Source of the DNA: Thermoanaerobaculia bacterium | Lineage (GTDB): Bacteria > Acidobacteriota > Thermoanaerobaculia > Multivoradales > JAHEKO01 | Length of the DNA: 64,000 nt | Direction: 5' to 3' | Assembly: GCA_049678185.1 (NCBI GenBank) | Contig: JBAUDS010000444.1 | Span: 7,158 to 71,157 of the forward strand | In this document: positions 23,499 to 62,344 of the stretch, one piece after another | How positions within the stretch are numbered: position 1 is the stretch's first letter | Layout: each line of letters starts with the position of its first letter | The notes under the pieces: generated by a model | Seen by the model: the letters and a program-made list of their open reading frames with translations, nothing else | Told to the model about the DNA's origin: nothing | Database searches by the model: none | Position numbers and translations under genes: made by a program

Positions 23499-23527
23499 TC
23501 GAAGCGTGCAAGCGGGAGGGGGCGGGC

Positions 23528-25406: not shown

Positions 25407-25423
25407 TATCCGACTTCTCTCGG

Positions 25424-31928: not shown

Positions 31929-31935
31929 GCCGCCC

Positions 31936-35363: not shown

Positions 35364-35406
35364 CGGACTTTTGCCGAAGAGTCCGCTGTCCTTCAATTCA
35401 CCAGTG

Positions 35407-35850: not shown

Positions 35851-35867
35851 CAGAGGATCAGCTACGA

Positions 35868-36284
35868 CTAGTCTTCGGGTTTGGCAGAGTCTTCGGGATA
35901 TTCGAAAACGTAGCTCATCATCTCTTCGAAGGTCCCGTCGGCATTTGGCAACGCCCGCTGTGCCGCGGTGAAGAGGAACTTGACCTTGACCTTTTCGTGC
36001 TTGACATTGGCTTTCAGCCGGAGAGTCAGTTCGACCTTCGTACCGCTGCAATCCACATCCAGGACGGTGAATGTAGCCCCCTCGGGAATCTCCTCGTTGT
36101 CCCTTTCCAGCTTGACGATTCCTCCCGGTGCTACTTTCGTGTCGTAAAGGGGTTTCTTGGCGATAAAGATCCTGCCCTCCAACTTGGTAGCCAACTCGGG
36201 GCAGTCGGAGTCAGCGGCGGCCAGCGAGGGGAAGGCAGTCAGCAGCACTGCGAGAGCCAACACGGTGAGAAACAAGGATTTCAT
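35868..36284 (-). CDS. small secreted protein or lipoprotein of unknown function
   Basis: It has a signal peptide (MKSLFLTVLALAVLLTAFPSLAAADSDC) and a 138-aa product. Confidence 0.5.
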   Translation of the reverse strand: MKSLFLTVLALAVLLTAFPSLAAADSDCPELATKLEGRIFIAKKPLYDTKVAPGGIVKLERDNEEIPEGATFTVLDVDCSGTKVELTLRLKANVKHEKVKVKFLFTAAQRALPNADGTFEEMMSYVFEYPEDSAKPED

Positions 36285-36321
36285 GGTTACACCTCCTGAG
36301 TAGGTCATCCGGCTCGAGGGT

Positions 36322-37281
36322 TCAATGCCGGGCTGTCGAAAGGTCCGCCCAGCCCTCGATCTCCACCAGCAGGCCATCACGGCAGAGGCCTACCCTGAGG
36401 AGCTCGATTTCTTCGAGTCCGGAAAAAGCAGTGCGTACGAGATCTTCAATTGTACTCTTGTCCCTCTCCTGCGGGTAATAGACCCGCAGCTGGCGGAACC
36501 TTCCGAGCAGAGCCTGCCGCTCACACTCCAGGTGGACTTCTGGTAGATCGACTATCAGACCGGAGGCGACCACCGACGCGAGATTGTGGAATGTTTCCTC
36601 AATCTGGGCCTCGAGGTCGCCGAGGTGAAGTGTGGTCTCGCCTCGAATGGAAGCCGTACCGCCGACCAGCAGTCGAGAGGGAGTGCCGGCTGTCTCTTCC
36701 AGCCGTGTGGCCCGGGAGAAACATGGCGGTAACGGACCATAGGCCCCGGAATAGCGGTAGGGAGCAATCTGACGGGGGTTGACTACCGGTAATCCTGGTT
36801 GGTCCGCGGCTAGCGCGTAGACGATCAGGTCGTCACCTTTGGTGCCGATTCCCGATGCGCAGGCAACCCTCTGGTCGAAGTCTCCACGCTCTCCGTACCA
36901 CCGGGAGTAGGCATTGAATCGCCCGGCGTTGAATGCCATGTAGCGATGCGGCAGGCTGCTGAGCGGCTCGAGAATCCCGGGGATGAGATTCCAGACGCGC
37001 ACGAGATGACGATCTCCCGCCGCGGTCAGCACCAATTCGTAGGCCTGTTCCACCTTCCGTTCAAGACCCTCTTGGTCGAGATATCGAGCCGCTTGGAGTC
37101 GAACGGCCACGAGCGTGTATCCCTCGCCCGTCCGGCGGCTCAAGAAGAAACCCTCGGGAGCTTCCAGCCCCAGCTCCGGACCGGGACCCACCAAATCGAG
37201 AACCCAGGGTTGGGGCTGACAGATCGACGGCTCAGCGGTTGAAGGCGGAGGGATGACTCGGGCAGCGAAGTGCTGAGGCAT
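36322..37281 (-). CDS. putative chorismatase, FkbO/Hyg5/XanB2-like (N-terminal domain plus RidA-fold C-terminus)
   Basis: The assignment is tentative. The protein is 319 aa, its C-terminal third (LLVGGTASIRGE ... LHLGDLEAQIEETFHNLASVV) resembles the RidA/YjgF fold, and the gene sits within a halogenase / aryl-polyene-like cluster. Confidence 0.35.
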   Translation of the reverse strand: MPQHFAARVIPPPSTAEPSICQPQPWVLDLVGPGPELGLEAPEGFFLSRRTGEGYTLVAVRLQAARYLDQEGLERKVEQAYELVLTAAGDRHLVRVWNLIPGILEPLSSLPHRYMAFNAGRFNAYSRWYGERGDFDQRVACASGIGTKGDDLIVYALAADQPGLPVVNPRQIAPYRYSGAYGPLPPCFSRATRLEETAGTPSRLLVGGTASIRGETTLHLGDLEAQIEETFHNLASVVASGLIVDLPEVHLECERQALLGRFRQLRVYYPQERDKSTIEDLVRTAFSGLEEIELLRVGLCRDGLLVEIEGWADLSTARH

Positions 37282-41534: not shown

Positions 41535-41554
41535 GGGGGGGAGGCTTCAGGGGA

Positions 41555-41580
41555 CGAAGCGGCCGGCCTCCGTGCCGGCC
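41555..41580 (+). repeat. REP-like GC hairpin, copy 3
   Basis: The copy GAAGCGGCCGGCCTCCGTGCCGGCCG lies between the two HEAT-repeat genes. Confidence 0.6.
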
Positions 41581-41610
41581 GACTCCGCGACGAAGAAAGG
41601 GAGAACCGAA

Positions 41611-42690
41611 ATGAAACTGACAGCCGCACTGATCATCGCAGCCACCATTGCTGCCGTTCCTTGTCTATCCCAGGCAGCCGAGATCCAAAATGCGAAAACG
41701 GAATCGATGCAGGCCACCGGCGATCTCCAAAAGACGGTAGAGCGCCTCGCCCGGGAAGCGGACGAGCCCACCTGGGTGGTCTACTCGGCGCCGATGGTCG
41801 AGGGCGATCGTTTGCTCTGCTGCAACGAGTCCCATACGTGGAGGGCGGGGGCCAAGAGCTGTGAGCTGGAAGGCCGGGAGCGCAATTTCGTCATGTCGAA
41901 CAGACACGGTTTGGTCCCCGCGAGCATGGCGTCGCGTGACCTTCTGGTCTTCCTGCGGCTCGCGAGCGATCGGGTTTCCGACCTACGGGTCTATTCCGAG
42001 TCCTGCCCGGTCGATGCCGGTGGCACCCGGGTGGTGTGGCTGGAGGGGGTGTCGCCCGAGTCGAGCGCCAAGATGCTGCACCGGTTCGCAGCGGGCGACC
42101 GCCTGCTGGCCGGCGATGAGGATCTGGCCGATGAAGCCCTCACGGCCCTCGCCCTCCACGACGCCGAGGGTACCGATGCCGCGGTCGAGGATCTCGCTGG
42201 ACCGAGCCACCCCGAGGAGTTGCGTGAGGAGGCCATCTTCTGGTTGGGCCACATGCGGGGTCGTGCGGGCTATTTGGCCCTCGACCGGCTGCTCGAGACA
42301 GAGAAGGACCCGGAGATCAAGGAGGAGATCGCCTTCGCCCTGACCCAGAGCCCGGTGCCGGAGGCGATCGACAGGCTGGAGAAGCTCGCCAAGAGCGACC
42401 CCAGCCCCGATGTGCGCGGCGAGGCCCTCTTCTGGCTGGCCCAGAGCGGCAGCGCCGGGGCCGGCGCGACGATCGTCGAGGCTATCCAACAGGACCCGGA
42501 AGAGGACGTGCGGGAGGAGGCGATCTTTGCCCTCAACCAGCTCCCCGACAACCAAGGGACCGAGCTGCTGCTGGAAATTGTCCGCGACGGCTCGCGGCCT
42601 GACGAGATTCGCCAAGAAGCGCTGTTCTGGCTCGTCCAATCGGACGACGACCGGGCCCTCGACCTGGTGTCCGATATCTTGCGGCAATAG
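41611..42690 (+). CDS. exported HEAT-repeat protein (second paralog)
   Basis: A signal peptide (LIIAATIAAVPCLSQA) precedes HEAT/PBS-lyase repeats (EEAIFWLGHMRG, GEALFWLAQSG, EEAIFALNQL, QEALFWLVQSD). Confidence 0.7.
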   Translation: MKLTAALIIAATIAAVPCLSQAAEIQNAKTESMQATGDLQKTVERLAREADEPTWVVYSAPMVEGDRLLCCNESHTWRAGAKSCELEGRERNFVMSNRHGLVPASMASRDLLVFLRLASDRVSDLRVYSESCPVDAGGTRVVWLEGVSPESSAKMLHRFAAGDRLLAGDEDLADEALTALALHDAEGTDAAVEDLAGPSHPEELREEAIFWLGHMRGRAGYLALDRLLETEKDPEIKEEIAFALTQSPVPEAIDRLEKLAKSDPSPDVRGEALFWLAQSGSAGAGATIVEAIQQDPEEDVREEAIFALNQLPDNQGTELLLEIVRDGSRPDEIRQEALFWLVQSDDDRALDLVSDILRQ

Positions 42691-42708
42691 ACCGAAATGT
42701 GGGGGTGG

Positions 42709-42790
42709 TTACTCCACCTCCACCACCATCTCGATCTCGACCGCGATACTCATTGGCAGCGATGCCATACCCACCGCGGCGCAGGAGGCT
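42709..42790 (-). pseudogene. orphan 3'-terminal fragment of a ridA-like gene (diverged duplicate of 44767..44850)
   Basis: Over about 65 nt it is similar to the 3' end of the intact ridA gene. The first 38 nt are identical and the remainder about 80% identical. It encodes ...ASLPMSIAVEIEMVVEVE plus a stop, and the listed ORF 42709..43038 is non-RidA upstream of that. Confidence 0.6.
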
Positions 42791-42970
42791 TTCGCCAACG
42801 CCAGCAACGAGGCCGACTGAGACGTATCGGTGTTCATGGGCGGGGCCGGTCTTCCCACCTTCAGGTTGCCACGAAAGGAGAAGGCGAAGACCCGGAGGCG
42901 GCCAATCGAGATTGGCGAGACCGCGAAGAGGTGGGACCAGAGTGGCGAGCGATCATCGAGGCGGAGGAGT

Positions 42971-44500
42971 TCATCGCTCGGGCCGCGCACTTGCGTATGC
43001 CTCTTGGACTGCCTGCTCCATTTGGGCGATCTCGTCATCTGACAGAAAGTCGAAATGACTGCTGCGCTTCAGAGCGGAAATTCGCCCGTTGTTCTGAAGG
43101 CAGAACCGAATGAACAGGTCGATCTTCCGGTCGGGTATGTCCAGAATGTCTTGAATGGCCTTCTTGGTCTCCTCGTACATTGCCAGAAACGACAATTCCT
43201 CGACGAGTTCCGTCTCGATGGTGTGCTCAATGAAGCGGTACAGCGCCTCGGCCTGCGGCGTCATGTCGATGTAGGCGTACCATCGAGCCGTATCGTTCTG
43301 GACGGTCATGCGCCCGTCTTCGTCGAGCAAATATTCGACCAATGGCATGAGCGGGCGCGAGAACGCCTCCAGCGAGGCGTCGTACGCGGACGGATTTTTC
43401 AGCATCGAAGCCGAAACTGGAAACATGATGCCTTCAGGCGTGAAGCCCTGGCGCGCAAGAATGTTGTGGATCAAGAAGCGATGGATGCGCCCATTGCCAT
43501 CTTCGAAGGGATGAAGGAAGACGAACCCGTAGGCCAGCGTTGCCGCGTGTACAACGGGGGGAACGCCGCCTTTATCCATTCGCTCATGCGTGGCGATCAG
43601 GCCGCTCATGAGCGACTCTAGATCTTCTGGCTTCGGGCAAGCGAAATGGACCTTCTCCCGTTGCCATGCCACGCTTTCGCCGACATAGTTCTGGAACGTA
43701 CGATAGTCGGAATCGCGGAATCTCGGATCGACGATGCGATTCTGAAGATCGATCAAATGCGCCTTCTCACAGAAGTCCTCTTTCTCCGCAAGCTGAAGCA
43801 TTGCGATGAATCGTTCGGTTCGAGTCGAGCTCGGTTTGACATGCTCGATCTCGAAGGACGATTTCGTCTCTTTTGTGTACAGGTAGCTCAGGGCCCGCTT
43901 CAGCAGTTCCGGCGAAAAGGCCGACACGACCTGCTTGCAGCGTTCGGTGAGATCGGCCTCTTGGAAGCCGCGAAGGACGTCGGTGCGCCGTATGGTTGGA
44001 CAAAATCGGCTATCGCCTAGCAGATTGTCGTTGATCCTCTGGCGACGGATCTGGCGAGCCGGTGTGACCGTGTAGTATTGATCCGAATCCAGCAGGTCGA
44101 CGTAGTTGCCCTGCTTCACATCATCCAACGGGAGAGTCGAGCCCGTTAGAAACTCATACAGGAACCACAGCCGTCGGGCGTATTTCCCGGTTGGTTTGGA
44201 CTCAACGTAGGCCAGGATTTCTTCCTGCAGGACTACCTCAAACAGGCTGGCGAGGATTGCGAGATTCGTGCCGTCGTACTTGAGTGCGAATTCGAGATGC
44301 GCCCCGAGAGAGTCCCCCGGCCAGTACTTGAATGGATAAACCTCCTCGGTTACGCCGGAGGAGGTTTCGATTCGGTGGGAACCGCCGGTGGCCACGCAGG
44401 ACCGGTGCCAGTTCGGGATAACTTCCAGGCTATATCTGGCAATCAGCGCCTCATACCCTGCTGGCTTCTGTCCCGTGCCTTCCTGATCGTGTTCATCCAT
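42971..44500 (-). CDS. Fic family protein (509 aa, COG3177-type)
   Basis: It has the canonical Fic motif HPFEDGNGRIHR. The architecture is an N-terminal helical domain with a C-terminal winged helix. Confidence 0.9.
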   Translation of the reverse strand: MDEHDQEGTGQKPAGYEALIARYSLEVIPNWHRSCVATGGSHRIETSSGVTEEVYPFKYWPGDSLGAHLEFALKYDGTNLAILASLFEVVLQEEILAYVESKPTGKYARRLWFLYEFLTGSTLPLDDVKQGNYVDLLDSDQYYTVTPARQIRRQRINDNLLGDSRFCPTIRRTDVLRGFQEADLTERCKQVVSAFSPELLKRALSYLYTKETKSSFEIEHVKPSSTRTERFIAMLQLAEKEDFCEKAHLIDLQNRIVDPRFRDSDYRTFQNYVGESVAWQREKVHFACPKPEDLESLMSGLIATHERMDKGGVPPVVHAATLAYGFVFLHPFEDGNGRIHRFLIHNILARQGFTPEGIMFPVSASMLKNPSAYDASLEAFSRPLMPLVEYLLDEDGRMTVQNDTARWYAYIDMTPQAEALYRFIEHTIETELVEELSFLAMYEETKKAIQDILDIPDRKIDLFIRFCLQNNGRISALKRSSHFDFLSDDEIAQMEQAVQEAYASARPER

Positions 44501-44581
44501 GGTGTTTCCAGAAGAACGATTACGTCCACAGAATTATGATTATATTTTGGCAAAAGTCAAGAAAAATGATTACGAAAGGGG

Positions 44582-44607
44582 TTTTCTAGGACCACACTCC
44601 TAGAAAA
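44582..44607. promoter_or_regulatory. perfect 10-bp inverted repeat TTTTCTAGGA-N6-TCCTAGAAAA in the fic leader
   Basis: The palindrome lies about 85-110 nt upstream of the fic start, inside the AT-rich foreign segment. Three ATGAT(T/C)A direct repeats lie nearby. Confidence 0.4.
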
Positions 44608-44766
44608 GCCGCGATAGGACCGGCAATACGAGTACAGTTGGCCACTTTTCAAGAAATATGATCACAGCCTATCCAGCCACCTCCCAATGGGTAGTGATCA
44701 GGGAAAGGAAGTTCGGCGATACGAACTTCCTTTCATTAACTTCCTTGATGACTTCCTGGTCATGTC

Positions 44767-45369
44767 CTACTCCACCTCCACCACCATCTCGATCTCGACC
44801 GCGATGCCCATGGGCAGCGATACCATCCCGACGGCGGCGCGGGCGTGCTTGCCCTGGTCGCCGAAGATCGACACCAGTAGATCCGAGCAGCCGTTGATGA
44901 CCTTGGGCTGGTCGGTAAAGGCGGGATCCGAGTTCACCATGCCGTGTACCTTGACGATGCGCTTCACCCGGCTGAGCTCCCCGATCTCGGCCTTGAGCGA
45001 GGCCAGCAGCGCGATGGCGGTAAGACGCGCGGCCTCGTAACCCTCTTCGAGTGTCAGGTCCTGACCCAGCCTGCCAGTGACATAGGTGCCGTCGGCCTTC
45101 AATGGCCCATGACCAGCCAGAAAGACTAGATTGCGGGTCGTCACCGCCCGTACATAGTTGGCCACCGGTGGTGGTGGAGTGGGGAGCTCGATACCGAGCG
45201 CCGCCAAACGTTTCTCTGGCGTGTCGGCGGCACTTTTGTCCGACGCGGTGTCTTGGGCGTTCGCCATCGGTGCAACGACGAGCCCGGCCACCAGGGCCAG
45301 CGCCACCAACAAGACGCCGATCTTTCTATCGGACCGGCTCTCCTCCAAGTTATCCAGACTGCAGCTCAT
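44767..45369 (-). CDS. Sec-exported RidA/YjgF family protein
   Basis: A signal peptide (IGVLLVALALVAGLVVAPMANA) precedes the RidA fold, and the C-terminus ARAAVGMVSLPMGIAVEIEMVVEVE is characteristic. A strong AGGGAGGA RBS lies before the internal ATG. The 3' end of this gene is the insertion site of the fic islet. Confidence 0.8.
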   Translation of the reverse strand: MSCSLDNLEESRSDRKIGVLLVALALVAGLVVAPMANAQDTASDKSAADTPEKRLAALGIELPTPPPPVANYVRAVTTRNLVFLAGHGPLKADGTYVTGRLGQDLTLEEGYEAARLTAIALLASLKAEIGELSRVKRIVKVHGMVNSDPAFTDQPKVINGCSDLLVSIFGDQGKHARAAVGMVSLPMGIAVEIEMVVEVE

Positions 45370-45398
45370 AGCATCCTCCCTTTGTGGTTGCCGGGATC

Positions 45399-46700
45399 TC
45401 AGGCTGTGGGTAGACCGCGATCGATGACCGCCTCCATGGCGTCGGCGAAGCGGTCGATCTCCTGCGGGGTGGTGAACACACTGGGCGAGACCCGGATGCC
45501 CTCGAACTCCGGGTGCTTGATGGCGACGACAAAGATACGATGGGTCTCCCACAGGTGGTCAGCCAACTCGGTGGAGTCGACCCCGTCGATCTGGACCGTG
45601 GCGATCCCGTAGGCGAATCCGGGCTCGAGACTGGTGTGGAGTCGCACCCGGTCGGACTCGATCAACCGCTCGGCCCAGCGGTTCCGCAGATAGACCAGAC
45701 GGGCGGCCTTGCGCTGGATACCGATCCCCTGGTTGAAGGTCAGCGCCTCGGCAATGGCCAGATAGTTGGCGGCCGGGTGGGTGCCGATCTCCTCGTACTT
45801 GCGAACGTTGTCGTCCATCTCGTCGGTGGCGGCCATCAGCGGCCACAGATCCCGGATCTTGTCCCGCCTGACATAGAGCAGACCGGTGCCGTGGGGAGCA
45901 AAAAGCCACTTGTGGAGGCTGGTGGCGAAGTAGTCGCAGTCGAGGTCCTTCTGCGTGAAGTCATAGTGGGCAAAGGTGTGGGCACCGTCGACGATCACCG
46001 GGATCCCCTTTCTGCGGGCCATCTGCACGACCTGGCGCACCGGCAGGATCTGGCCGGTGATGTTGATCATGTGGCACATGAGGATCAGTCGGGTGCGCGG
46101 GGTGATGTTCTCCTCGAACAGAGCGACGATCTGGTCCGGATCTTCGGCCGGGATGGGAATCTGGAAGCGGCGCAGGACGATCCCCTCGCGCCGCTCGCGC
46201 TGTTTGAAGGTGGTGACCATCCGTGGATAGTCCTGGGTGGTGGTGAGCACTTCGTCACCGGGCGCGAGGTCGAAGCCGAACTGGCAGATCTGCAGTCCCT
46301 CCGAGGCGTTGCGGGTAAGCGCGATCTCCTCCGGGTCGCAGGCGAAAAAGCGGGCCAGACGCTGCCGCACCGGTTCGCGCTGGGGCTCGAGGATCCGCCA
46401 CATGGTGTACGGGGGCACGGTGTTGGAATAGTCGAGGTGCCGCTTCATCGCCTGCTGCACCACGGCCGGGGCCGGGCTGACGCCGCCGTTGTTGAGGTTG
46501 ACCAGGCTGCGGTCGGGGGTGAAGGCCTGCTGGACCCGGAACCAGAAGGCCTCGTCGGTGGCGACCTCCGCCGGGCTCCCGGGGTAGGAAGCCAGATCTT
46601 GAGTGATGGCGGCGACCCGTTCCGGCCTGAGGGCGGCCATGGCCATCAGGGCACCGGCGGGCAAGGCGATCGAGCCGAGAAACTGGCGGCGACTGTGCAT
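45399..46700 (-). CDS. TAT-exported class V aminotransferase-fold PLP enzyme (cysteine-desulfurase / isopenicillin-N-epimerase-like)
   Basis: The twin-arginine motif SRRQFLGS is followed by an h-region, and class V fold blocks are present. The gene lies immediately upstream of ridA on the same strand. Confidence 0.75.
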   Translation of the reverse strand: MHSRRQFLGSIALPAGALMAMAALRPERVAAITQDLASYPGSPAEVATDEAFWFRVQQAFTPDRSLVNLNNGGVSPAPAVVQQAMKRHLDYSNTVPPYTMWRILEPQREPVRQRLARFFACDPEEIALTRNASEGLQICQFGFDLAPGDEVLTTTQDYPRMVTTFKQRERREGIVLRRFQIPIPAEDPDQIVALFEENITPRTRLILMCHMINITGQILPVRQVVQMARRKGIPVIVDGAHTFAHYDFTQKDLDCDYFATSLHKWLFAPHGTGLLYVRRDKIRDLWPLMAATDEMDDNVRKYEEIGTHPAANYLAIAEALTFNQGIGIQRKAARLVYLRNRWAERLIESDRVRLHTSLEPGFAYGIATVQIDGVDSTELADHLWETHRIFVVAIKHPEFEGIRVSPSVFTTPQEIDRFADAMEAVIDRGLPTA

Positions 46701-46792
46701 GGAGTCTCCCTCCTCAGGGCTACGCAGAGTGGCGAGTGTCGAACTGAACGATGAGCTCAAAGTATACAGAGGGCTTGGCCAGCCCTCCTGAC

Positions 46793-46818
46793 GAAGCGGC
46801 CGGCCACCGTGCCGGCCG
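46793..46818 (+). repeat. REP-like GC hairpin, copy 4
   Basis: The copy GAAGCGGCCGGCCACCGTGCCGGCCG lies about 27 nt 3' of the PPK2 stop. Confidence 0.6.
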
Positions 46819-46844
46819 ATCGACTACTGATTCTCTTTCGCGGC

Positions 46845-47657
46845 TCAATCCTCGATCACGACCCCCTCGAGCCCCTCTTCCGCCTCTGGATACCGCATCT
46901 CGAGCCCCTCGAGCGTGTCGACGAGAATCTGCGATATGAGGAGGTTGCGGAACCACTTCTGATCACCGGGGATGATGTACCAGGGGGCCGACTCGGTGCT
47001 GGTCTTCGACAGGACATCTTCGTAGGCCTGCTGGTAGTCGTCCCAGAGGGCGCGCTCGGCCAGGTCCCCCTTGGCGAACTTCCAGTTCTTGTCCGGCTCG
47101 TCGAGCCTGGCCTGGAGTCTTTCCTTCTGCTCCTTCTTCGAGATGTGGAGAAAGAACTTGAGGATGGTGGCACCCTCTTCGGCGAGCAGTCGCTCGAAGT
47201 CGTTGATCTGCGCGTATCTCAGTTTCCACACCTTTTTGGGCACCAGGTCGTGGACCCGCACCACCAGGACGTCCTCGTAGTGACTGCGGTTGAAGATGAC
47301 GATCTCGCCGCTGCCCGGGGTGTGCGGGTGGACCCGCCAGAGATAGTCGTGGGCCAATTCACGAGAGGTAGGCTTCTTGAAGCTCGCCACTTTGACCCCT
47401 TGCGGGTTGACCCCGTCGAACACATGCCGGATGGTGCCGTCCTTGCCGCCGGTGTCCATCGCCTGCAGCATCACCAGCACTTTGTGCTTCGACTCTGCCC
47501 ACAGCAGCTCCTGCAGCTCTTCTAGACGTTCGGTAAGGGGAGCGAGCCTCTCTCGGCCCTCATCCTTGTCGAGCCCGACAGCATCCCCTCCACGCGTGGC
47601 CCACTCATCGAGCTCGATGCGGCTGTCCGGCGGAATGCGATAGCGATTGGCTTTCAC
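46845..47657 (-). CDS. polyphosphate kinase 2 (PPK2) family protein
   Basis: It has Walker A-like MDTGGKDGT and the lid and PPK2 blocks (FNRSHYEDVLVVRVH). The start was set at an in-frame GTG after AGGAGGGAG, which gives about 270 aa. The maximal ORF would overlap the divergent gene start, so the N-terminus is uncertain. Confidence 0.7.
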   Translation of the reverse strand: MKANRYRIPPDSRIELDEWATRGGDAVGLDKDEGRERLAPLTERLEELQELLWAESKHKVLVMLQAMDTGGKDGTIRHVFDGVNPQGVKVASFKKPTSRELAHDYLWRVHPHTPGSGEIVIFNRSHYEDVLVVRVHDLVPKKVWKLRYAQINDFERLLAEEGATILKFFLHISKKEQKERLQARLDEPDKNWKFAKGDLAERALWDDYQQAYEDVLSKTSTESAPWYIIPGDQKWFRNLLISQILVDTLEGLEMRYPEAEEGLEGVVIED

Positions 47658-47782
47658 GGCTCCCTCCTGGATTTCGTCCTGTAGGATGTGGGTGAAGGCT
47701 ATCCCATCGGCACGGACGGCGACGTTCTCTTGCCCGTTCTGTAACCGACGTGGGAGGATGCTGGAGCCGAAGGAGGAGTCCG

Positions 47783-48703
47783 ATGTCACGCAACCTCATT
47801 CTGTCGACCATTTTTCTTTGCATATTGACGGCTGGTGTCGTACAAGCGGCCTCGGTCGAGCAGGCCAGGTCCTATATCCAGGATCGGGACCTGGCGCGGG
47901 CGAAGCAGGAGCTGGCGCAGGTTCTGGCCTCGGACGCAGCCGACGAGGAGATGGCGGCGGCACTCGATCTGATGGCGGCGATCGCGGTCGAAGAGCGGGA
48001 TTACACCAGTGCCGCGGATCTGTGGGAAAGGCTGGTGACCGACTACCCCAAACGGGCCGAGGAGCTGGGAGCGGCGACCAAGCTCCTGCTGGCGAAAGCT
48101 CTAATCGGGCAGGAAGAGGTCAAGATGGCCCCGGCACCGGCGGCGGAGGTGCCCGCGGCGCCGGTTGCACCCACCCCGCAGGCGGTGGCGCCGAGCACAG
48201 AGGCGACAGCGGAGAAGGCTGCGCCGGCCCCGGCGCCGGCGACCGCCCCGCAAGAAGTTCGGGCAGAAAAGCCGGCGGCTCCAAGGGTACCCGGGCTGGT
48301 GCTGGTGGCAGGCACCGGTAAACCCTACGAAGCCGCCGAGCACGCCGTTGCGGAGTTGGCGACTTATCTGATCGAAAGTGGCGTCAACACCGAGCTGCCG
48401 ACCGGTGGTATCCCCGTGGTCGAGAGCGCAACCACCTCGATGATGCGGTTACTGGAGGCGGTCGAAGATCGTGGTGCCGAGAGCCTGGTCTTCATGCGGG
48501 TGAATTTCGCGACCGTGGAGAAGATCGCGGTCGAGGTCTACTCTCCCGATGGTGCTCTGTTGTGGAAGGAGCGTGTAAGCGGCGGTACCGGGCACACGGG
48601 CCGTCCCTACTCCAAGACCGGTGTCAATGCCAAGCTCATGGAACGGTTCCTTGGCAAGATCGCCAAGCGTATCGGCGGCCCCGGTCTACCGGTCAGCCAC
48701 TAG
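47783..48703 (+). CDS. secreted protein of unknown function (TPR-like N-terminus, Ala/Pro-rich linker, unknown C-terminal domain)
   Basis: It has a strong AGGAGGAG RBS and a signal peptide ([19 protein letters not shown]). Confidence 0.5.
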
Positions 48704-49676
48704 TGTTACCGCCTTCGGGTTCGTCGAGGAACCCGTGCTCGCGCATCCAGTCGTCGGAAACGAACTTGGTCAGGTAGTTGCGGATCGAGTCGGGCAGAAT
48801 CACCAAGGCTTTCTTCACCTCCGGGTAGTGCTCGAGTGCCTGGAGCATCGCCCAGACCGCGGTGCCGGAGCTGCCGCCAACCAGCAGTCCCTCTTCCCGG
48901 ATCAGTCTCCGAGCCATGAGGAAGCTCTCCCGGTCGTTGACATAGATCCAGCGGTCGACGAGGTCCCGGTCGAGCACCCCGGGAATGAAGTCGTAGCCGA
49001 TGCCTTCGACCTGGTAGGTGGCGACCTCGGTGCGACCTCCGAGTATCGAGCCCTCCGGGTCGACACCGATGATCAAAATATCGGGGTTCTTCTCCTTGAG
49101 GAAGCGGGCCACGCCGGTGATGGTGCCGCCGGTACCGGCGCTGATCACCACCATGTCCAGTGAGTCACCAAAATCCTCCGAGATCTCGGCGCCGGTGCCG
49201 TGGTAATGGGCGTCGGGGTTGTCGGGGTTCTCGTACTGGTCGGGAATGACCGAGCCGTCGATCTCCTCGTTGAGTCGTTTGGCGACCCCGAGCAGACTCT
49301 CGGGATCGTCGTGGGCCGCCTCGGTCGGGGTACGGATGATCTCGGCACCCAGCGCCTCCATCACCACCTGTTTCTCCTGGCTCATCTTCTCCGGCATGGT
49401 AATGATCAGCCGGTAACCCTTGACCGCGGCGGTCATGGCGAGACCGGCGCCGGTATTGCCGCTGGTGGGCTCGATGAGGGTGGTGACCCCGGGCTGGGCG
49501 CGGCCGGCCTTCTCCAGCCCATCCACCATACGCACGGCAATCCGGTCCTTGACCGAGCCGCCGGGGTTCAAGAACTCGCACTTGGCGTAGAGCTCGGTTG
49601 AAAGCTCCGCCCCGATCTTGTTGAGTCGCACCACCGGGGTCCTGCCCACGATCTGCAGGATGTTGTCGTAGATCAT
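48693..49676 (-). CDS. cystathionine beta-synthase / cysteine synthase family PLP enzyme (no CBS-pair domains)
   Basis: The [17 protein letters not shown] block holds the PLP lysine, and the GNTG loop is present. The 327-aa product is measured from the MIYDNIL start. Confidence 0.85.
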
Positions 49677-49827
49677 CTGGTCCCCTCTCTGGACGCTGAC
49701 AAAAAAGCAGCGGGGAGTATACCTTCCGTCTCCGGGGTGGTGGCTCGAGAGTCGGTTCGGGCTGGGATAGGATGCGAGCTGCGACAGCCAACGGGCGAGG
49801 GTTTCCCCTCGGAAGGAAAGGAGAATC

Positions 49828-51606
49828 ATGAACAGTCTGAGCAGATGGGTGGGTCTGACCCTGGTCGGTGCGGTCTTGGGATGCGCGCCGGCGAATGGTC
49901 CGGCAGCGACCGATTCGACAGCCGATCTTCATGGCCTCTTCGACGAGGCCTGGAGCTTTGTGCTGGAGGAGAACCCCTTCTACGCCACCTATGTGGGGAA
50001 CCACGACTACGACGATCGTCTGCCATCGGCGTCGCTGGCGGACGAGGCCCGGCGCGCCGAATACTGGCAAGAGACCCTGGAGCGGCTGGCAGCGATCGAC
50101 CGCTCGAGTCTTGCCGCGGAAGAGCAGATCAACTACGACATGTTCGAGAGCCAGGTGAGCGATCGGGTTACCGCCTTCGAGCTCAACGACCATCTGATTC
50201 CGATCACCGCCGAGAGCGGATTTCACACCGGCTTTGCACGGCTGGCCGATCGGGTGCCGCTGGCTACCGTCGAAGGCTACGAGAACTACATCTCGCGGCT
50301 GCGGGCGTTCCCCGACCTTGTCGACCAGTACATCGAGGTCATGCGCCAAGGGATTGCCGAGGGCTACGTCCTGCCGCGGGTGGTGCTCGACGGGTATGAG
50401 TCGACGATCGACGCCCACATCGTCGAGGAGGTCGCCGAGAGTGTCTTCTGGAAGCCGTTCGAGAGCTTCCCCACCACCGTGCCCGCGGACGAGCACGAGC
50501 GGTTGCGGGAGGCCGGCGAGGCGGCCATCATCGAAAGGGTGATTCCCGGCTACGAGGCCTTCTACGCTTTTATGGTCGACGAGTACATCCCCAACACCCG
50601 TGAGACCCTGGGAGCCTCGGAGCTTCCCAACGGCCGTGAGCTCTACGACTACCTGATCCGCCACCACACGACCCTGGATCTGACCGCCGACGAGGTGCAC
50701 CAGATCGGGCTCGACGAGGTGGCCCGCATCCGCGCCGAGATGATGGAGGTGATCGAGCAGGTGGGATTCGCGGGGAGCTTTGACGAGTTTGTGGAGTTTT
50801 TGCGTACCGATCCCCGCTTCTACCCGAAGAGCGCCGAGGAGTTGCTGAAAGAGGCCTCCTATATCGCCAAGAAGATGGACGGCAAGCTGCCGTCGCTGTT
50901 CAAGACCCTGCCGCGGCTCCCCTACGGGGTGGAGCCGGTGCCCGAGCACATCGCCCCCAAGTACACCGCCGGCCGCTACGTCGGCGCGCCGGTCGGCAGC
51001 ACCAAGCCGGGCTACTACTGGGTCAACACCTATGCCCTCGAAAGCCGCCCCCTCTATGCGCTGACGGCACTGACCCTGCACGAGGCGGTGCCGGGTCACC
51101 ATCTGCAAAACGCCCTGCGCCAGGAGCTCGAGGATCTGCCCAACTTCCGGCGCTTCTCCGGTGTCAACGCCTATGGCGAAGGGTGGGGCCTCTACTCCGA
51201 GCGGCTCGGTCTCGAAGCGGGCTTCTACGAGGATCCGTACGACAACTTCGGCCGCCTGACCTACGAGATGTGGCGGGCCTGCCGGTTGGTGGTCGACACC
51301 GGGGTCCATGCCAAGGGGTGGACGCGGCAGCAGATGATCGACTATCTCGCCGCCAACACGGCGCTGTCGCTGCACGAGATCACCACCGAGACCGATCGCT
51401 ACATCTCCTGGCCGGGGCAGGCCCTGGCCTACAAGATCGGTGAGCTCAAAATCCGCGAGCTTCGGGCCAAGGCCGAGGAAGCCTTGGGTGAGCGCTTCGA
51501 CATCCGCGAGTTCCACGATGTGATCCTGCGCCACGGGCCGGTGCCGCTTCCGGTGCTGGAGAGCCAGATCGACGCCTTTATCCAGGAGGCACAGGCGAGC
51601 GGCTAG
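49828..51606 (+). CDS. DUF885 family putative metallopeptidase lipoprotein
   Basis: A lipobox ([10 protein letters not shown]) and the [10 protein letters not shown] zinc-binding-like motif are present, and the 592-aa length is typical of DUF885. The 827-aa antisense ORF 49165..51648 is judged spurious. Confidence 0.8.
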
Positions 51607-51617
51607 GCGCCAGAGGA

Positions 51618-52133
51618 ATGAGCAATCGAGCGCTGAGGGCGACAGCACTCGTCGTTGCCCTGATCATCGCCGCCTGGGTCTTCCTGGGGTGGTGGGGAAG
51701 CGACGAGCGGCGGATCAAACGACGGGTCAAGCACCTCCAGAAGCTGGTGACCAAGAACATCGGCGAGGGGGACCTGGGAGCGCTCAACCGCGCCCGCGAG
51801 ATCACCGAGATTTTTGCCGACCCCTTCGACTTCGAAGCCGAGCAGTTCGATTTCCGCAGCCGCGACCGCCAGAGCCTGGCGGTCGGTATCCACAGCTACC
51901 GCTCGCGCGCCGAGACCATAGGCATGCGGGTCCGTGACTGGCAGCTCGATGTCGACAAACCATCGCGGCGGGCGACGCTGAACGTGACCACCGACTTCGT
52001 CACCAGCTTCCGCGACATAACCGGCCGCGAGGCCTATCGCTGGCAGGTGAACTGGGTCGAGCAGGAGGATGAGTGGCGGATCGACTACGTGCGGCTGCTC
52101 GAGGTCATCGAAGAGCCGTCCTGGGGCTTTTGA
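51618..52133 (+). CDS. membrane-anchored protein of unknown function (target gene of the second islet)
   Basis: It has an N-terminal TM segment (ALVVALIIAAWVFLGWW). Its last 85 nt are duplicated in diverged form at 53881..53969. Confidence 0.5.
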   Translation: MSNRALRATALVVALIIAAWVFLGWWGSDERRIKRRVKHLQKLVTKNIGEGDLGALNRAREITEIFADPFDFEAEQFDFRSRDRQSLAVGIHSYRSRAETIGMRVRDWQLDVDKPSRRATLNVTTDFVTSFRDITGREAYRWQVNWVEQEDEWRIDYVRLLEVIEEPSWGF

Positions 52134-52154
52134 CTGCTCGGCTCGACCTCGAGC

Positions 52155-52808
52155 CTAAGGCGAGGCCGGGAGAAACTCGCAGCCGACAGAGCTGAGAAAG
52201 CACCGCTTCTTGCTGCCGCCGAGTAGCTTCATTACTGCCGGTTTGAAGTTGGAGACCGGCTTCCCGGCAGAATTCTTGTTACCCACCGGGTCCGCCGCGA
52301 GTTTCTGGATAACCCTCCGGTCTTTGAACCGGACTCGGACGGTTACCCCAAGCCCATGCCGAATCTCGATCTCTTGCGGCAGCGGGAGGCTCTCTACGAC
52401 ATAGACGTCCCACCTTGGCGAGTGCCATTTGAGGTCGTTCTCCGCGAAGATCCTTCGATGGCCGTCAAATACGTGGAGTTGGGTGATAAACGCCCCACCG
52501 TCGTCCATCGGGTACTTGTAGAAGTTGTCGGACTCTTGGACCCACTCCGGGTTGGGGATCGGAGGCTCGTAATCGGTGGTGAACTGCAGCATCACTTTGC
52601 GAAGTCGCGGCCACTGTTGCGAGCTTTCTACGGCCAGGCTGGTCATCGGTAGGTGAAAGTGCACCCAGGGTTCGTCATGGTTGTCTTCATCCTGGGCCTT
52701 GCCCTCGAGATAGAGACCCCAACCGGCAGGAGTCCACTCACCCCACTCGTCTTCGACCTCCTGGAAGTGCCCGCAGTTGCCGTGGACCCAAGTAATCTGC
52801 GTCGACAT
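52155..52808 (-). CDS. hypothetical cytoplasmic protein (islet cargo)
   Basis: The 217-aa ORF lies in the lower-GC segment, and no motif was recognised. Confidence 0.45.
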   Translation of the reverse strand: MSTQITWVHGNCGHFQEVEDEWGEWTPAGWGLYLEGKAQDEDNHDEPWVHFHLPMTSLAVESSQQWPRLRKVMLQFTTDYEPPIPNPEWVQESDNFYKYPMDDGGAFITQLHVFDGHRRIFAENDLKWHSPRWDVYVVESLPLPQEIEIRHGLGVTVRVRFKDRRVIQKLAADPVGNKNSAGKPVSNFKPAVMKLLGGSKKRCFLSSVGCEFLPASP

Positions 52809-53113
52809 TGACCTGGTCCTCCTAGAAAAAAGTTGTCGTCATCCAGGCAAACCGGTCAAGGCTGCGCTGGTATCCGGATCCGCAAGAGGAATCTCCTCTG
52901 GATGAGACTTACTCGTTCTGTGGAACTTCTCGGAGCTTCGTGGCTGGACCACCCAGTTCGATCAACACGATATCCGAGTCTACGCCCAAACGGTCGAATA
53001 CGATCCGCTGGCCACCCGATTTTGGAGTGAGATCGGACGGCCAGTCGAAAGGGATATAGTGCTTGGAACCACTATCACCAGTTTCTGGTCAAATAGGGAC
53101 CTAGGAGGACGAT

Positions 53114-53791
53114 TTGCGCCAGGTTGCTGCTCGGATAACACCTTTTGTAGTCCTACTGGTTGTTGCTCTTCCCGGGATGGCCGACTCTCGTCTCACCATC
53201 GAGGAAGGGAGCGGTCTGGTCGGCGACGGCGCTGAGCTGCCGGAGGGCATGCGCGAGAGCCTGGCCAATCAAGAGCCAACAACGGTTACCTATTGGTTCA
53301 CCGGGGACCGCGCGGCTCGAGTCGATAAGTCAGGCAGCATCATCAGCCGGCTGGACCGGAGTGAGGCCTACTTCGTCAACACCGACGCCAAGACCTACAC
53401 CGTCATCGAGATGGGCGGCCCAGAAGATGGGCCTGCGCCAACGGCTGTCTCGAAACTCGTCCAATCGGGCGAGACCAGAAAGATCGCCTCCTGGAACACG
53501 GTTCGCTACGACATGACGATCGAGATGGGGGACGAGCCCGCCGAGATTGTCCTGTGGGTCAGCGATGAGGTCGATGTCGACCTATCCTCCTACCGGGCCT
53601 TTGTCGAAGCCATGGCCGACTCGCAGGGGATGGAATGGATGAAGAGCTTTCTCGAGATCGACGGCTACCCGGTACGGCAGGAATTCCGCATGGGTCCCAT
53701 CCTGTCGTGGCAGCAACTCGTCTCGGTAAGTCAGGAGCCGGCACCTGCCGGCACCTACGAGGCACCGGCAGGCTTCGCGAAAGTCGATTAG
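53114..53791 (+). CDS. hypothetical secreted protein (islet cargo)
   Basis: A TTG start 5 nt after AGGAGGA is followed by a signal peptide (ITPFVVLLVVALPGMADS), giving a 225-aa product. Confidence 0.45.
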   Translation: MRQVAARITPFVVLLVVALPGMADSRLTIEEGSGLVGDGAELPEGMRESLANQEPTTVTYWFTGDRAARVDKSGSIISRLDRSEAYFVNTDAKTYTVIEMGGPEDGPAPTAVSKLVQSGETRKIASWNTVRYDMTIEMGDEPAEIVLWVSDEVDVDLSSYRAFVEAMADSQGMEWMKSFLEIDGYPVRQEFRMGPILSWQQLVSVSQEPAPAGTYEAPAGFAKVD

Positions 53792-53880
53792 CTGCGCGAA
53801 TGGCCAGTAGCCTCCAAGTCGGGTGTTTCACGGCCCGGTGATGACGCTCCAGGCGACGCGGCCGAAGCTGGGCTGTGAAG

Positions 53881-53969
53881 CCAACCGCTGGCAGGTAGAC
53901 CGGGTAGAGCAGGAGGAGGAGTGGTGGTTCGACTATGCTCGGCTGCTCGAGGTCATCGAAGACCTCTAG
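53881..53969 (+). pseudogene. orphan diverged 3'-end copy of gene 51618..52133 (alternative C-terminus plus stop)
   Basis: It is about 80% identical over 85 nt, with a 22-nt perfect core GGCTGCTCGAGGTCATCGAAGA. It encodes NRWQVDRVEQEEEWWFDYARLLEVIEDL plus a stop, compared with YRWQVNWVEQEDEWRIDYVRLLEVIEEPSWGF in the intact gene. Confidence 0.55.
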
Positions 53970-56377
53970 CGCGTGGGATTCGGAGTCGCGGGAATCCCGA
54001 TGCGGCGAGTCAGCTCGGCGAAACGGGGATCGTCGCGGACGAGATCCCAGCTGGGCTCCTGGCGCATCAGCATGAGCTGTGGGATACGCTCGACGTAGGC
54101 TCGCTCCAGCCACTCGTAGGCGGCATCGGCCTCTCCGGCCCCCGCAAAGTAGAGGGCGACCTCGCGCGCATTGGACCGGCCCGACTCGACCCGAGTGGCC
54201 AACACCTCGGCGACTCGCTTCGCTCCTTCCCGCGGACCCGCCGCGGCATATCCCTCTTCGAGAGCGGTGAGCAGCTCGGGGTTGTCTTGCCAGCGTCGGC
54301 GGTACTCGGCCAACGACGCCTCGAAGTCACCTTTGAGCCAGAGGGCCCGAGCGAGAAAAATCCGCGCCGCAGGAAACCTTGGATCAATCTCCAGGAGTGT
54401 GTGGGCGCCGTCGATAGCCTCGTCATAGCGCCGCGCCAAGACGAGGTGGGCTACCACAGGTGAGTTGACGAGGGGGGAGAGGGGATCGGCCCGTGCCGCC
54501 CGCCGCAAGTACTCGACACCCTCGTCGGCTCTTCCCATCACCGTCAGGTAGTCGGCGTAGCCGTGGCAGGCGTACGGATCGTAGGGATTCAATGCGAGCG
54601 CCCGTTCGAAATCGCGGGCCGCACCGCTCCAGTCCCAATCGAAGTAGAGCCTTATCCAGCCGGACAGCGCATGACCGGTGAGGTTGTCGGGATCCAGCTC
54701 GAGAGCTTTTCGAGTGTTCTCTCGGGTCAGCGCCTCGTGCTGCCGGCGGTCGCCGATGCCAAAGCTTGCGATCAACAGGTGGCAGCCGGCTAACCGGGCG
54801 TAGGCTTCGGCAAAACCGGGCTGGATCTCGATGGCTCGATTGAAGAAGTCTACGGCCCGGAGGTAGCCGTCGGCAGTGAAGCGATTGAACGAGTGCTGAC
54901 CCTTGAGAAAAGCCTCGTGTGCCGCGGGATCGATCGTTCCCGTCGCGGCAAAGCGTCGCTCCTGCTCGGGTGTCAGGGTAGCCTGGATCTCGCCGGCGAT
55001 GGAGCGGGCTACCTCACTCAGCAGGATCAACACATTCTCAATCTGTCGATCGTAGCTATCGGCCCACAGATGCTCATCGGTGCGTCCATCGATCAATTGG
55101 GCGGTGACGCGAACCTCGCCACCCGAGCGCAAAACAGAGCCTTCGATCAGCGCGTCGACATTCAACTGCTGGGCGATCTCCGGCAGGCTCGCATCGCTGT
55201 CCTTGAACCGCATGGCCGAGGTGCGGGAGATGACGCGCAGGGATGTAATCTTCGCCAGGTCGGTGATCAGAGCCTCATGCAGTCCCTCGACAAAGTAGTC
55301 CTGGTCCGGATCGTTCATTAGATTCTCGAAGGGCAGGACCGCCAATGACTCCACACTCGGATGCCCGGCAGCCCCGGGTGGTGGGCTTCGACGTCCGGAT
55401 AACCAGTAGACACCAGCCAGAATGACGACCAGCGCCGCGGCGATCATCAAAGGAAGGCGCCAAGGTGCAAGAGGCGATTGCTGTGCCTCAGGCTCGACGG
55501 GCGGTCGAGCATCGAGGATGGCCCGGGTTTCGAGCTCCTTGGCGAGGTCCTGGAGCTCGTTGCGGACGTCCTTGGCCGACTCGTAGCGGCGCTCGGGGTC
55601 TTTTTCCAAGCACCGTCGAACGATGCGGCCGAGATGGTGAGGCAGCTCCTGCCGCAGGGCATCCACGGAGCTTGGAGGATCCCGCAAGATCGCGGAGATC
55701 AGATCGGCCGAGCTCTTGCCGCCAAAGGGGCGACCTCCCGTCGCGATCTCGTAGAGGACCACTCCCAGCGCGTACACATCCGTCCGTCGATCGGTCTCCT
55801 GGCCCTGCACTTGCTCGGGCGCCATGTAGGGGACCGTGCCGACAACCCGGCCCTCCTGCGTGATGCCCTCGGTCGCCAGTTGGGTTCCCGTCTTGTCTGC
55901 CGCGTCTGGCTTGAGCTTGGCGAGACCGAAGTCGAGCACCTTGACCTGACCCCTCGGCGTGACCATGACATTGCCGGGCTTCAGGTCGCGGTGCACGATT
56001 CCCTTATCGTGCGCCGCCGCCACGGCATCGGCCAGCGGAATCGCCACCTCGAAAATCCTTTCCAGAGTTATTCCTCCAGGTGGGATGAGGTCCGCCAGAG
56101 TCCGTCCTTCGACCAGCTGCATCGTGAGAAAGCGAATCCCGTCGTCCTCTTCGACCGAGTAGATGTGCACGATGTTCGGATGGTCCAAAGCAGCCAGTGT
56201 CTCTGCCTCCAACTGAAAGCGCTGCATCCTCTCCTGGCTGCCAACCATCCCCGGCGGCAGCACTTTCAGGGCAACCTGACGCTTGAGCTCGAGATCGTCG
56301 GCGCGGTAGACCTCGCCCATACCGCCTTCGCCCAGCTTGGCGAGCACGCGGTAGTGGGAAATGGTTCTGCCGATCAT
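53966..56377 (-). CDS. Hanks-type Ser/Thr protein kinase with TolB-N-like module and C-terminal TPR repeats (paralog of 2510..4657)
   Basis: Kinase motifs are GEGGMGEVY (Gly-rich glycine loop), VALK, HRDLKPGNVM, DFGLAK and PYMAPEQ. A TM segment follows (PLMIAAALVVILAGVYWL), then LPFENLMNDPDQDYFVEGLHEALI and TPR repeats. Confidence 0.85.
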   Translation of the reverse strand: MIGRTISHYRVLAKLGEGGMGEVYRADDLELKRQVALKVLPPGMVGSQERMQRFQLEAETLAALDHPNIVHIYSVEEDDGIRFLTMQLVEGRTLADLIPPGGITLERIFEVAIPLADAVAAAHDKGIVHRDLKPGNVMVTPRGQVKVLDFGLAKLKPDAADKTGTQLATEGITQEGRVVGTVPYMAPEQVQGQETDRRTDVYALGVVLYEIATGGRPFGGKSSADLISAILRDPPSSVDALRQELPHHLGRIVRRCLEKDPERRYESAKDVRNELQDLAKELETRAILDARPPVEPEAQQSPLAPWRLPLMIAAALVVILAGVYWLSGRRSPPPGAAGHPSVESLAVLPFENLMNDPDQDYFVEGLHEALITDLAKITSLRVISRTSAMRFKDSDASLPEIAQQLNVDALIEGSVLRSGGEVRVTAQLIDGRTDEHLWADSYDRQIENVLILLSEVARSIAGEIQATLTPEQERRFAATGTIDPAAHEAFLKGQHSFNRFTADGYLRAVDFFNRAIEIQPGFAEAYARLAGCHLLIASFGIGDRRQHEALTRENTRKALELDPDNLTGHALSGWIRLYFDWDWSGAARDFERALALNPYDPYACHGYADYLTVMGRADEGVEYLRRAARADPLSPLVNSPVVAHLVLARRYDEAIDGAHTLLEIDPRFPAARIFLARALWLKGDFEASLAEYRRRWQDNPELLTALEEGYAAAGPREGAKRVAEVLATRVESGRSNAREVALYFAGAGEADAAYEWLERAYVERIPQLMLMRQEPSWDLVRDDPRFAELTRRIGIPATPNPTR

Positions 56378-62286: not shown

Positions 62287-62309
62287 CCCGAAGGCGCAGT
62301 CCGACTTAC

Positions 62310-62335
62310 GAAGCGGCCGGCCTCCGTGCCGGCCG
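62310..62335 (+). repeat. REP-like GC hairpin, copy 5
   Basis: The copy GAAGCGGCCGGCCTCCGTGCCGGCCG lies between the convergent GH9 and aminopeptidase stops. Confidence 0.6.
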
Positions 62336-62344
62336 AATGCGACG

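Follow-up and report, generated by a model that had tools for sequence, protein, structure and literature searches.

A 64,000-nucleotide stretch of the genome of a Thermoanaerobaculia bacterium (Acidobacteriota; assembly GCA_049678185.1, contig JBAUDS010000444.1, positions 7,158 to 71,157; referred to as the window) was analysed for two short insertions, islet 1 and islet 2, in which cargo genes lie between the 3' end of a gene and a partial copy of that end. With about even confidence, the islets were interpreted as scars left where accessory genes had been gained and the sequence rearranged, at hot spots on gene boundaries, and not as elements with their own or a novel integration system. 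The observations themselves are an empty site for islet 1, colinearity of the relic gene end with its ancestral neighbourhood, junctions that hold other genes in relatives, relics that have decayed, and no recombinase in the window.

Direct repeats of at least 60 nt were searched for in the 40–57 kb region and then in the whole window, where only two were found. The pair of islet 1 (D2) matched 42710-42785 with 44768-44843 over 76 nt at 89% identity, and the 38 nt nearest the stop codon were perfect. The pair of islet 2 (D1) matched 52023-52114 with 53871-53962 over 92 nt at 84% identity, and the final 23 nt were perfect. Both pairs consisted of the 3' end of a gene and a partial copy 1.8–2.1 kb downstream, with low-GC cargo between them. 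The gene-attached copies were the true 3' ends of intact genes, RidA/YjgF in islet 1 and X171 in islet 2. The GC content was 0.55–0.59 in the islets and 0.63 in the window. An earlier note on this DNA had described two diverged gene-end copies flanking cargo of lower GC content, and had read them as two like units captured at stop codons by a recombinase acting in trans; the repeat search and the GC values confirmed the description.

Islet 1 and its flanks contained the following features.

41611 to 42690, plus strand: HEAT-repeat gene (Pfam HEAT_2), the ancestral convergent neighbour of RidA
42709 to 42785, minus strand: R2, displaced RidA 3'-end relic with stop codon TAA at 42709-42711, joined to the ancestral downstream spacer and the HEAT gene
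42786 to 42970, no strand: islet-specific spacer of 185 nt between the Fic stop codon and the RidA relic
42971 to 44500, minus strand: islet 1 cargo, a Fic-domain protein of 509 aa with an HPFxxGNGR motif (Pfam Fic, 7.2e-15)
44501 to 44580, minus strand: 5' leader of the Fic module, conserved with other Fic loci and carrying a sigma70-like promoter at 44560-44533, TTGACT-16-CATAAT (nucleotide homology and promoter scan)
44581 to 44766, no strand: islet-specific spacer of 186 nt with two hairpins, as read from the sequence, outside the segment conserved with other Fic loci
44768 to 44843, minus strand: R1, the gene-attached functional copy, which is the last 76 nt of RidA, with stop codon TAG at 44767-44769; its differences from orthologs are mostly synonymous
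44767 to 45369, minus strand: intact RidA/YjgF-family gene, the target of islet 1 (Pfam YjgF_endoribonc, 4.3e-23; Ribonuc_L-PSP, 3.8e-13)

The RidA start was placed at 45369 or 45267, the latter being used by public gene calls (166 aa), and RidA orthologs were 85–92% identical. One homolog, at 92% identity, had the same C-terminal tail as the gene-attached copy of the window. The 186-nt and 185-nt spacers had no blastn match in any fetched locus or elsewhere in the window.

Related loci were reached through RidA homologs, and for most of the alignment their nucleotide identity to the window was about 80–87%. Seven congener loci (L104-L108, L195 and L198) were compared by sequence. The sister contigs L196-L197 and L199-L202 were compared by gene calls, and their gene order was the same as in their sister loci. 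In L195-L197, RidA was followed by 14 nt, a convergent HEAT-repeat gene and then the anti-sigma and sigma genes of the window, and this RidA-HEAT arrangement is the empty site of islet 1. According to blastn and alignment, L195 7718-9320 was colinear with window 42785-41189, covering the RidA end, the spacer and the HEAT gene, and the sequence after the gene-attached RidA copy in the window was new relative to L195. Since the L195 end is colinear with the distal copy and new sequence follows the proximal copy, islet 1 is a clean insertion of 2,058 bp, and the distal RidA copy is the one still in its ancestral context. In L198-L202, the RidA-HEAT junction held five unrelated genes of about 4.2 kb in total (a PAS-SpoIIE phosphatase, a 67-aa ORF, a rhodanese, a Usp protein and a short-chain dehydrogenase), with no RidA relic at the far end. 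In L107 and L108, RidA was followed by a convergent gene for a 977-aa TonB-dependent-receptor-like protein.

The earlier note had given perfect cores of 22–38 nt, and perfect blocks of 38 nt and 23 nt do exist, but the RidA block was not a junction core. The block ATCGCGGTCGAGATCGAGATGGTGGTGGAGGTGGAGTA was identical in both window copies and in L195, L198, L107 and L108; these four loci carry no cargo or other cargo, yet the 36–38 nt block was invariant. Because it is invariant in congeners without the same cargo, the RidA block represents conserved coding sequence and no element-specific junction. Nucleotide differences were counted over the last 75 nt before the stop codon, and all fell in the variable upstream part. 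The proximal and distal copies of the window differed at 9 positions, either copy differed from three orthologs at 6–11 positions, and the three orthologs differed from one another at 4–8. The two copies were thus about as distant as inter-species orthologs, which could reflect either an old duplication or the import of one copy from a related donor. The distal copy had a glycine-to-serine change at a conserved glycine. An A at the third position of a V/A codon (GTA/GCA) was common to both copies and was found in none of the three congeners. A sliding identity comparison with three congeners gave no signal of an imported block beside islet 1, as all species were about equally distant.

Islet 2 and its flanks contained the following features.

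51618 to 52133, plus strand: X171, an intact SnoaL_4-like gene of 171 aa, whose native 3' end at 52023-52114 runs on to the stop codon (family alignment)
52155 to 52808, minus strand: c217, 217 aa, fast-evolving, in a swappable slot between X171 and a beta-propeller gene, syntenic in L106
52899 to 53034, minus strand: third relic, about 41 codons from the 3' end of a beta-propeller gene of the PD40/Tricorn type (80% identity by tblastn over 41 aa)
53114 to 53791, plus strand: DUF4412-family gene, 225 aa (Pfam DUF4412, 6.8e-07)
53871 to 53969, plus strand: decayed X171 3'-end relic, ending in EDL and the stop codon (sequence comparison)
53966 to 56377, minus strand: gene for a Ser/Thr protein kinase with TPR repeats, adjoining the X171 relic (Pkinase/TPR in the precomputed Pfam results for identical contigs)

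The X171 family alignment showed that the EEPSWGF-type tail after the 23-nt block was conserved down to 50% identity, and the tail was present in L104, L195 and L198, all of which lack c217. Since the tail is conserved and also occurs in relatives without c217, the gene-attached X171 end is native and its homology passes the supposed core. Regeneration of the C-terminus was therefore not borne out for islet 2, where native X171 continues beyond the block, and insertion at a stop codon held only for islet 1, at the RidA 3' end with its empty site in L195.

Islet 2 is a composite and not one unit. In L106, the order was X171, c217 and an intact PD40/Tricorn-type beta-propeller gene. The window and L106 (1031-1684) copies of c217 shared 60% amino acid and 71% nucleotide identity without indels, and their flanks were 87–92% identical. 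The changes in c217 by codon position were 52/48/90, with many at the first and second positions, which suggests diversifying or relaxed selection on a gene in a swappable slot; c217 had no Pfam, NCBIfam or PADLOC match. The slot beside X171 held a DUF2780 gene in L104, L195 and L198-L200, and in L198 the DUF2780 gene was followed by a 104-aa ORF and then the propeller gene. The propeller gene was intact in congeners, and its relic in the window matched L198 by blastn at 83% over 115 nt. Identity to L106 was 0.80 up to 53034 and then fell to 0.30, the random level, so synteny ended at 53034/53035. The DUF4412 gene beyond this point had no tblastn match in the congener loci fetched; it was followed by 79 nt and the X171 relic, whose stop codon overlapped that of the convergent kinase gene. 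The earlier note had given each islet one or two cargo genes, which agrees with Fic in islet 1 and with c217 and DUF4412 in islet 2 but leaves out the propeller relic. Its picture of two like islets does not fit islet 2, in which c217 is also found in L106, a propeller relic is present and the same slot can hold DUF2780. No empty site for islet 2 was found in the congener loci examined.

The X171 relic differed from the gene-attached copy by nine nonsynonymous and four synonymous codon changes, which hit invariant or near-invariant residues, including the near-invariant Y140 and W146. Compared with the functional copies of five congeners, the relic differed at 15–20 of 93 nt and in 9–11 nonsynonymous codons; the functional copies differed among themselves by 0–13 nt. 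The relic is thus a long-branch pseudogene fragment that is either old or fast-decaying. The partial copies had been called diverged but coding-competent, and open frames and divergence were indeed found, but the nonsynonymous changes at conserved residues in the X171 relic do not agree with competence in an evolutionary sense. No intact X171 paralog that could have been the source of the relic was present among the listed homologs. A Campbell-type or site-specific crossover inside the 23-nt X171 block was rejected, because it would make the native EEPSWGF tail element-derived and relatives without the cargo have the tail. Public gene calls annotate the relics as small hypothetical proteins of 42 aa (42709-42837) and 48 aa (53826-53969); these are almost certainly pseudogene fragments.

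Proteins identical to X171, Fic and the HEAT-repeat protein were found on contigs of several Microflora Danica metagenome-assembled genomes (labelled Thermoanaerobaculia, Acidobacteriota, at NCBI) and in Logan assemblies. The islet structure was the same on every contig with one of these identical proteins, and since all of them carry the islets, both appear fixed within the sampled species. The exact-protein look-ups with X171, Fic and HEAT showed no presence/absence polymorphism among same-species contigs, and the look-up with the kinase gave no record. A search of genome contigs with the DUF885 protein found closest genomes at 56–68% identity, with no other gene of the region in common; the species of the window was absent from these matches.

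No Pfam domain of an integrase, recombinase or transposase was found in the islet ORFs or in any sizeable ORF of the window, and precomputed Pfam results for the same-species contigs contained no integrase or transposase. No tRNA was found in the window, no inverted terminal repeats joined the islet ends, and no motif was shared between the RidA and X171 cores; the lack of a recombinase, a tRNA and inverted terminal repeats agrees with the earlier description. Repeats of gene fragments resembling attL/attR together with an uninterrupted site in relatives were present for islet 1 (76 nt, L195-L197), and repeats were present in islet 2. An identity block specific to occupied sites was absent, as the RidA block was invariant everywhere and native X171 ran past its block. 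No cognate integrative and conjugative element (ICE) or integrative and mobilizable element (IME) with the same att site was found among 80 RidA loci, the seven congener loci compared or IMG/VR contigs.

The RidA core had no match in IMG/VR. The 23-nt X171 core occurred in two IMG/VR contigs from sister samples with unrelated flanks, and these matches were attributed to chance. Capture of a phage or att type was not supported, as neither core was found in an att-like setting in phage or IMG/VR contigs. Two other kinds of element were rejected. An integron gene cassette did not fit, as no integrase was found and the repeats were coding ends of neighbouring genes and not attC-type palindromes; an insertion sequence (IS) or transposon did not fit, as there was no transposase, no inverted repeats lay at the islet ends and the duplications measured 76–111 nt.

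The Fic protein matched the PADLOC profile PDLC04966 (PDC-S24) with an E-value of 2.7e-188, residues 11-504 aligning with profile positions 4-491 of 497. The Fic gene is thus a predicted member of PDC-S24, a candidate single-gene defence family in PADLOC-DB, and the view of this cargo as a toxin or defence module was upheld to that extent. A literature search found no paper naming the PDC-S24 family. Fic homologs at 75–87% amino acid identity were very numerous, and source-named homologs fell under at least five phylum- or class-level labels, coming from Thermoanaerobaculia, Phycisphaerales, Planctomycetes, Gemmatimonadota and Gamma- and Deltaproteobacteria. The promoter and ORF were 78–86% identical at the nucleotide level in unrelated contexts. 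Nucleotide homology to three other Fic loci was limited to window 44580-42990, covering the ORF and a leader of about 75 nt with its edge at 44574-44580. The GC content of the gene was 0.55–0.57 across hosts of 0.48–0.64, and the Fic cargo is compositionally foreign.

In the three other contexts, the homolog lay in a toxin-antitoxin patch beside an IS481-type transposase, on its own among enzyme genes, or next to an AAA_14 ATPase gene, and none had direct or inverted repeats flanking the Fic homolog. Phage contigs that encode a terminase, a primase and a RecD2-like helicase carried a homolog of 64–65% identity, and a plasmid search gave Fic homologs of at most 44% identity. Judging from these comparisons, the Fic/PDC-S24 module (42971-44580) appears to be an unusually conserved and widely transferred single gene. 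The duplicated gene end, one of the hallmarks named in the earlier note, did not accompany the Fic cargo elsewhere: the three other Fic contexts lacked repeats. The five-gene RidA-HEAT insert also lacked a duplication.

We infer the recombination mechanism and the donor from these observations. The distal copies would be displaced, non-functional 3' ends, left on the downstream neighbour when new DNA joined just upstream. For islet 1, the 2,058-bp segment may have come from a related donor that already carried the cargo downstream of RidA, and would have brought the RidA 3' end, 186 nt, the promoter-plus-Fic module and 185 nt. Recombination with the highly conserved RidA sequence as its anchor could have fixed it, with an illegitimate event at the other joint (homology-facilitated illegitimate recombination, HFIR, also called C-terminal displacement) or by a single Campbell-type crossover in the invariant 38 nt. 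A functional RidA would have been kept and the old RidA end would have become the relic. For islet 2, at least two superimposed events would be needed: a cassette exchange (c217 or DUF2780) between X171 and the beta-propeller gene, and an older event in which the propeller gene would have been truncated and DUF4412 with the X171 relic left beside the kinase gene.

The scar reading is supported by the other contents of the same junction in L198-L202 and L107/L108, and by the Fic module, which on the evidence of its other loci would be a wandering unit without flanking repeats elsewhere. Several gene-content differences fell within about 15 kb and only two of them had a duplicated end; the PPK2 gene (described below) appears to be one of the others. 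Both islets had an orphan 3' fragment beside the downstream neighbour with the intact gene upstream: the RidA fragment beside the ancestral HEAT gene and the X171 relic beside the kinase gene. Displacement of 3' ends after an insertion anchored by upstream homology has been proposed for Rhs and type VI secretion system (T6SS) loci (PMC5361080).

Several points count against this reading. No donor with cargo beside the anchor gene was present among the fetched loci, that is, none with RidA, 186 nt and Fic in order, and the Fic homologs lay in unrelated contexts. At the distal joint of islet 1, similarity narrowed to GCGCCGC and a few bases, a match that is short and GC-rich, and is compatible with an illegitimate joint but not diagnostic of one. 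HFIR is rare and usually deletes recipient DNA instead of duplicating it (PMC5361080, PMC3240628). The X171 relic was about 21% diverged over its first 70 nt and perfect over its last 23 nt (53940-53962 vs 52092-52114). By our own estimate, such uneven decay has a probability of about 0.004 under uniform decay, and the scar model leaves it unexplained; the congeners L104, L195, L198 and L105 varied within the 23-nt X171 block. Gene conversion or a constraint from the convergent kinase 3' end is a possible cause of the perfect 23 nt, but either would be ad hoc. The congener contigs ended at the propeller gene (L198 and L106 inside it), so the ancestral arrangement of islet 2 beyond that gene was not visible.

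The strongest alternative, less likely but to be taken seriously, is that the islets are decayed integrative elements similar to cis-mobilizable elements (CIMEs). Islands bearing a tyrosine or serine integrase, with a gene fragment carried on attP in the ordinary way, would have entered the RidA 3' end and, earlier, the X171 3' end; the gene-attached copy would be the replacement end supplied by the element and the distal copy the displaced host end, as in e14 with icd and icdC. The integrase and most of the cargo would later have been lost through internal deletions, so that the gene or genes under selection and the two att scars were left, and an incoming related element might still mobilise the islets in cis. 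The layout matches attL-cargo-attR exactly, including the displaced gene end, and islet 1 has an empty site. The cargo is foreign in composition and is a candidate defence gene whose family also occurs in phages, and the 186-nt and 185-nt orphan spacers could be element remains. Integrative elements as a rule restore their target gene with a fragment from attP (PMC7192596), icd and the pseudogene icdC lie on either side of e14 (PMC13626634), and CIMEs retain attL/attR after losing their integration genes (PMC6323972). However, searches of the islets, the window and the same-species contigs turned up neither an integrase nor a pseudo-integrase, and neither site was found to carry an integrase-bearing element in a relative. 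What occupies the RidA site elsewhere is a set of five ordinary genes without att duplication, the RidA end occurred in no viral contig, the IMG/VR matches to the 23-nt X171 block had no similarity in their flanks, and the other Fic loci lacked repeats. Islet 2 also includes a propeller gene of housekeeping type, and at least three congeners have this gene in synteny.

A duplication made in place at the time of insertion was considered improbable. Capture of DNA at a staggered break or by template switching, in repair of the nonhomologous end joining (NHEJ) or microhomology-mediated break-induced replication (MMBIR) type, would have doubled 76–111 nt of the target, and initially identical copies would have diverged since. 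The A in the third position of the V/A codon, present in both RidA copies and in none of the three congeners, would fit such an event; the identity profiles along the region show no donor-specific signal, and relic decay is as expected for a redundant copy. Yet the insertion of islet 1 would then have to date from about the time of the split from L195 (9 nt against 6–11 nt), whereas the L195 site is empty and intact. This explanation also does not account for both duplications ending at a stop codon, and the decay of the relic is strikingly non-uniform.

A new or trans-acting route, in which a host- or helper-encoded recombinase would target the conserved 3' ends of convergent genes and insert integrase-less mini-cassettes such as the PDC-S24 Fic module, with the stop-proximal perfect blocks as crossover sites, would suit two islets of the same geometry within 11 kb, the perfect blocks in both repeats (that of X171 being statistically odd) and the varying gene content of both junction regions among congeners, but was judged very improbable, as the RidA block is invariant whether or not the site is occupied, the native X171 tail runs past its block, other occupants of the same junctions lack duplications, the Fic cargo lacks such repeats elsewhere, and no motif common to the cores, inverted repeats or candidate recombinase were found.

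The islets were compared with known systems. They resemble C-terminal displacement/HFIR scars, as in Rhs loci and Vibrio T6SS effector-immunity arrays (PMC5361080, PMC3240628), in having a conserved upstream anchor, a new gene end installed together with downstream cargo, an old 3' end orphaned downstream, no element-encoded recombinase and different cargo at the same slot in related strains. Unlike those scars, the targets are ordinary housekeeping-type genes (RidA, SnoaL_4-like) where those loci have polymorphic toxins, the protein tail encoded by the incoming end is essentially unchanged with no new toxin tip, each locus has a single orphan, and the mechanism here is an inferred one. Elements that carry an attP fragment, such as e14 with icd/icdC (PMC7192596, PMC13626634), share an intact target, a diverged 3' copy at the far end, foreign cargo and, for islet 1 only, an empty site in relatives. 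In contrast to these elements, no integrase was present in 64 kb, the inserts were only 1.8–2.1 kb, no related integrase-bearing element was found at the sites, and islet 2 contained syntenic chromosomal genes and an extra relic. CIMEs (PMC6323972) likewise lack an integrase, and direct repeats bound their cargo where it adjoins a conserved gene's 3' end, but they are defined by intact attL/attR common to a cognate ICE or IME; here no cognate was found and the distal repeats are decaying.

Variable slots flanked by core genes, including defence hot spots, are exchanged by homologous recombination in the flanks. The junctions studied here are like such slots in holding different cargo, including a candidate defence gene, and in lacking the hallmarks of mobile elements. 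Plain exchange by flanking homology leaves no duplicated gene end, whereas both sites have one.

Overall, the loci resemble C-terminal displacement/HFIR scars or degraded integrative islands, both of which are described kinds. A recombinase-based explanation would add no new category, because CIMEs and the restoration of gene ends by attP have already been described (PMC6323972, PMC7192596).

Other observations were made in the window. The PPK2 gene (46845-47789, minus strand) lay in a region of which the segment 46778-47746 had no counterpart in the alignments of L107 and L108 to the window. In L195, the PPK2 call was only 132 aa and the alignment was split by a gap of about 70 nt. This appears to be one more point at which congeners differ in gene content, and it lacks a flanking duplication. 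A GC-rich hairpin repeat of the REP (repetitive extragenic palindromic) or terminator type, ACGAAGCGGCCGGCC[A/T]CCGTGCCGGCCGA, was intergenic and recurrent. It occurred at 16194-16233, 41543-41582, 46780-46819 and 62297-62336, also at 10100-10130, and in the congener L198 at 7598-7635; two of the spots were near variable junctions. The region from about 22000 to 36400 contained a biosynthetic cluster of the lipid or polyketide type that resembles aryl-polyene-type clusters. Its genes encoded a flavin halogenase, a methyltransferase, a polysaccharide deacetylase, an AMP-ligase, an acyl carrier protein (ACP), a ketosynthase, a glycosyltransferase, a ketoreductase, an MMPL transporter, a lipid A-type acyltransferase, an ApeP-like protein and an FkbO/Hyg5-like protein.

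These results call for caution in genome scans, where a diverged gene end, a perfect core and low-GC cargo together mimic an att site; here the RidA core was invariant coding sequence and the partial copies were decaying orphans. A trans-acting recombinase, if true, would be an added mobilisation route for defence genes, and no finding here requires it. The two loci provide a well-resolved natural example, from an uncultured member of the Acidobacteriota, of how single accessory genes enter at gene boundaries while the neighbouring gene remains undisrupted. A widely travelling Fic-type candidate defence gene is among the genes gained, and sister species reuse the junctions for other cargo.

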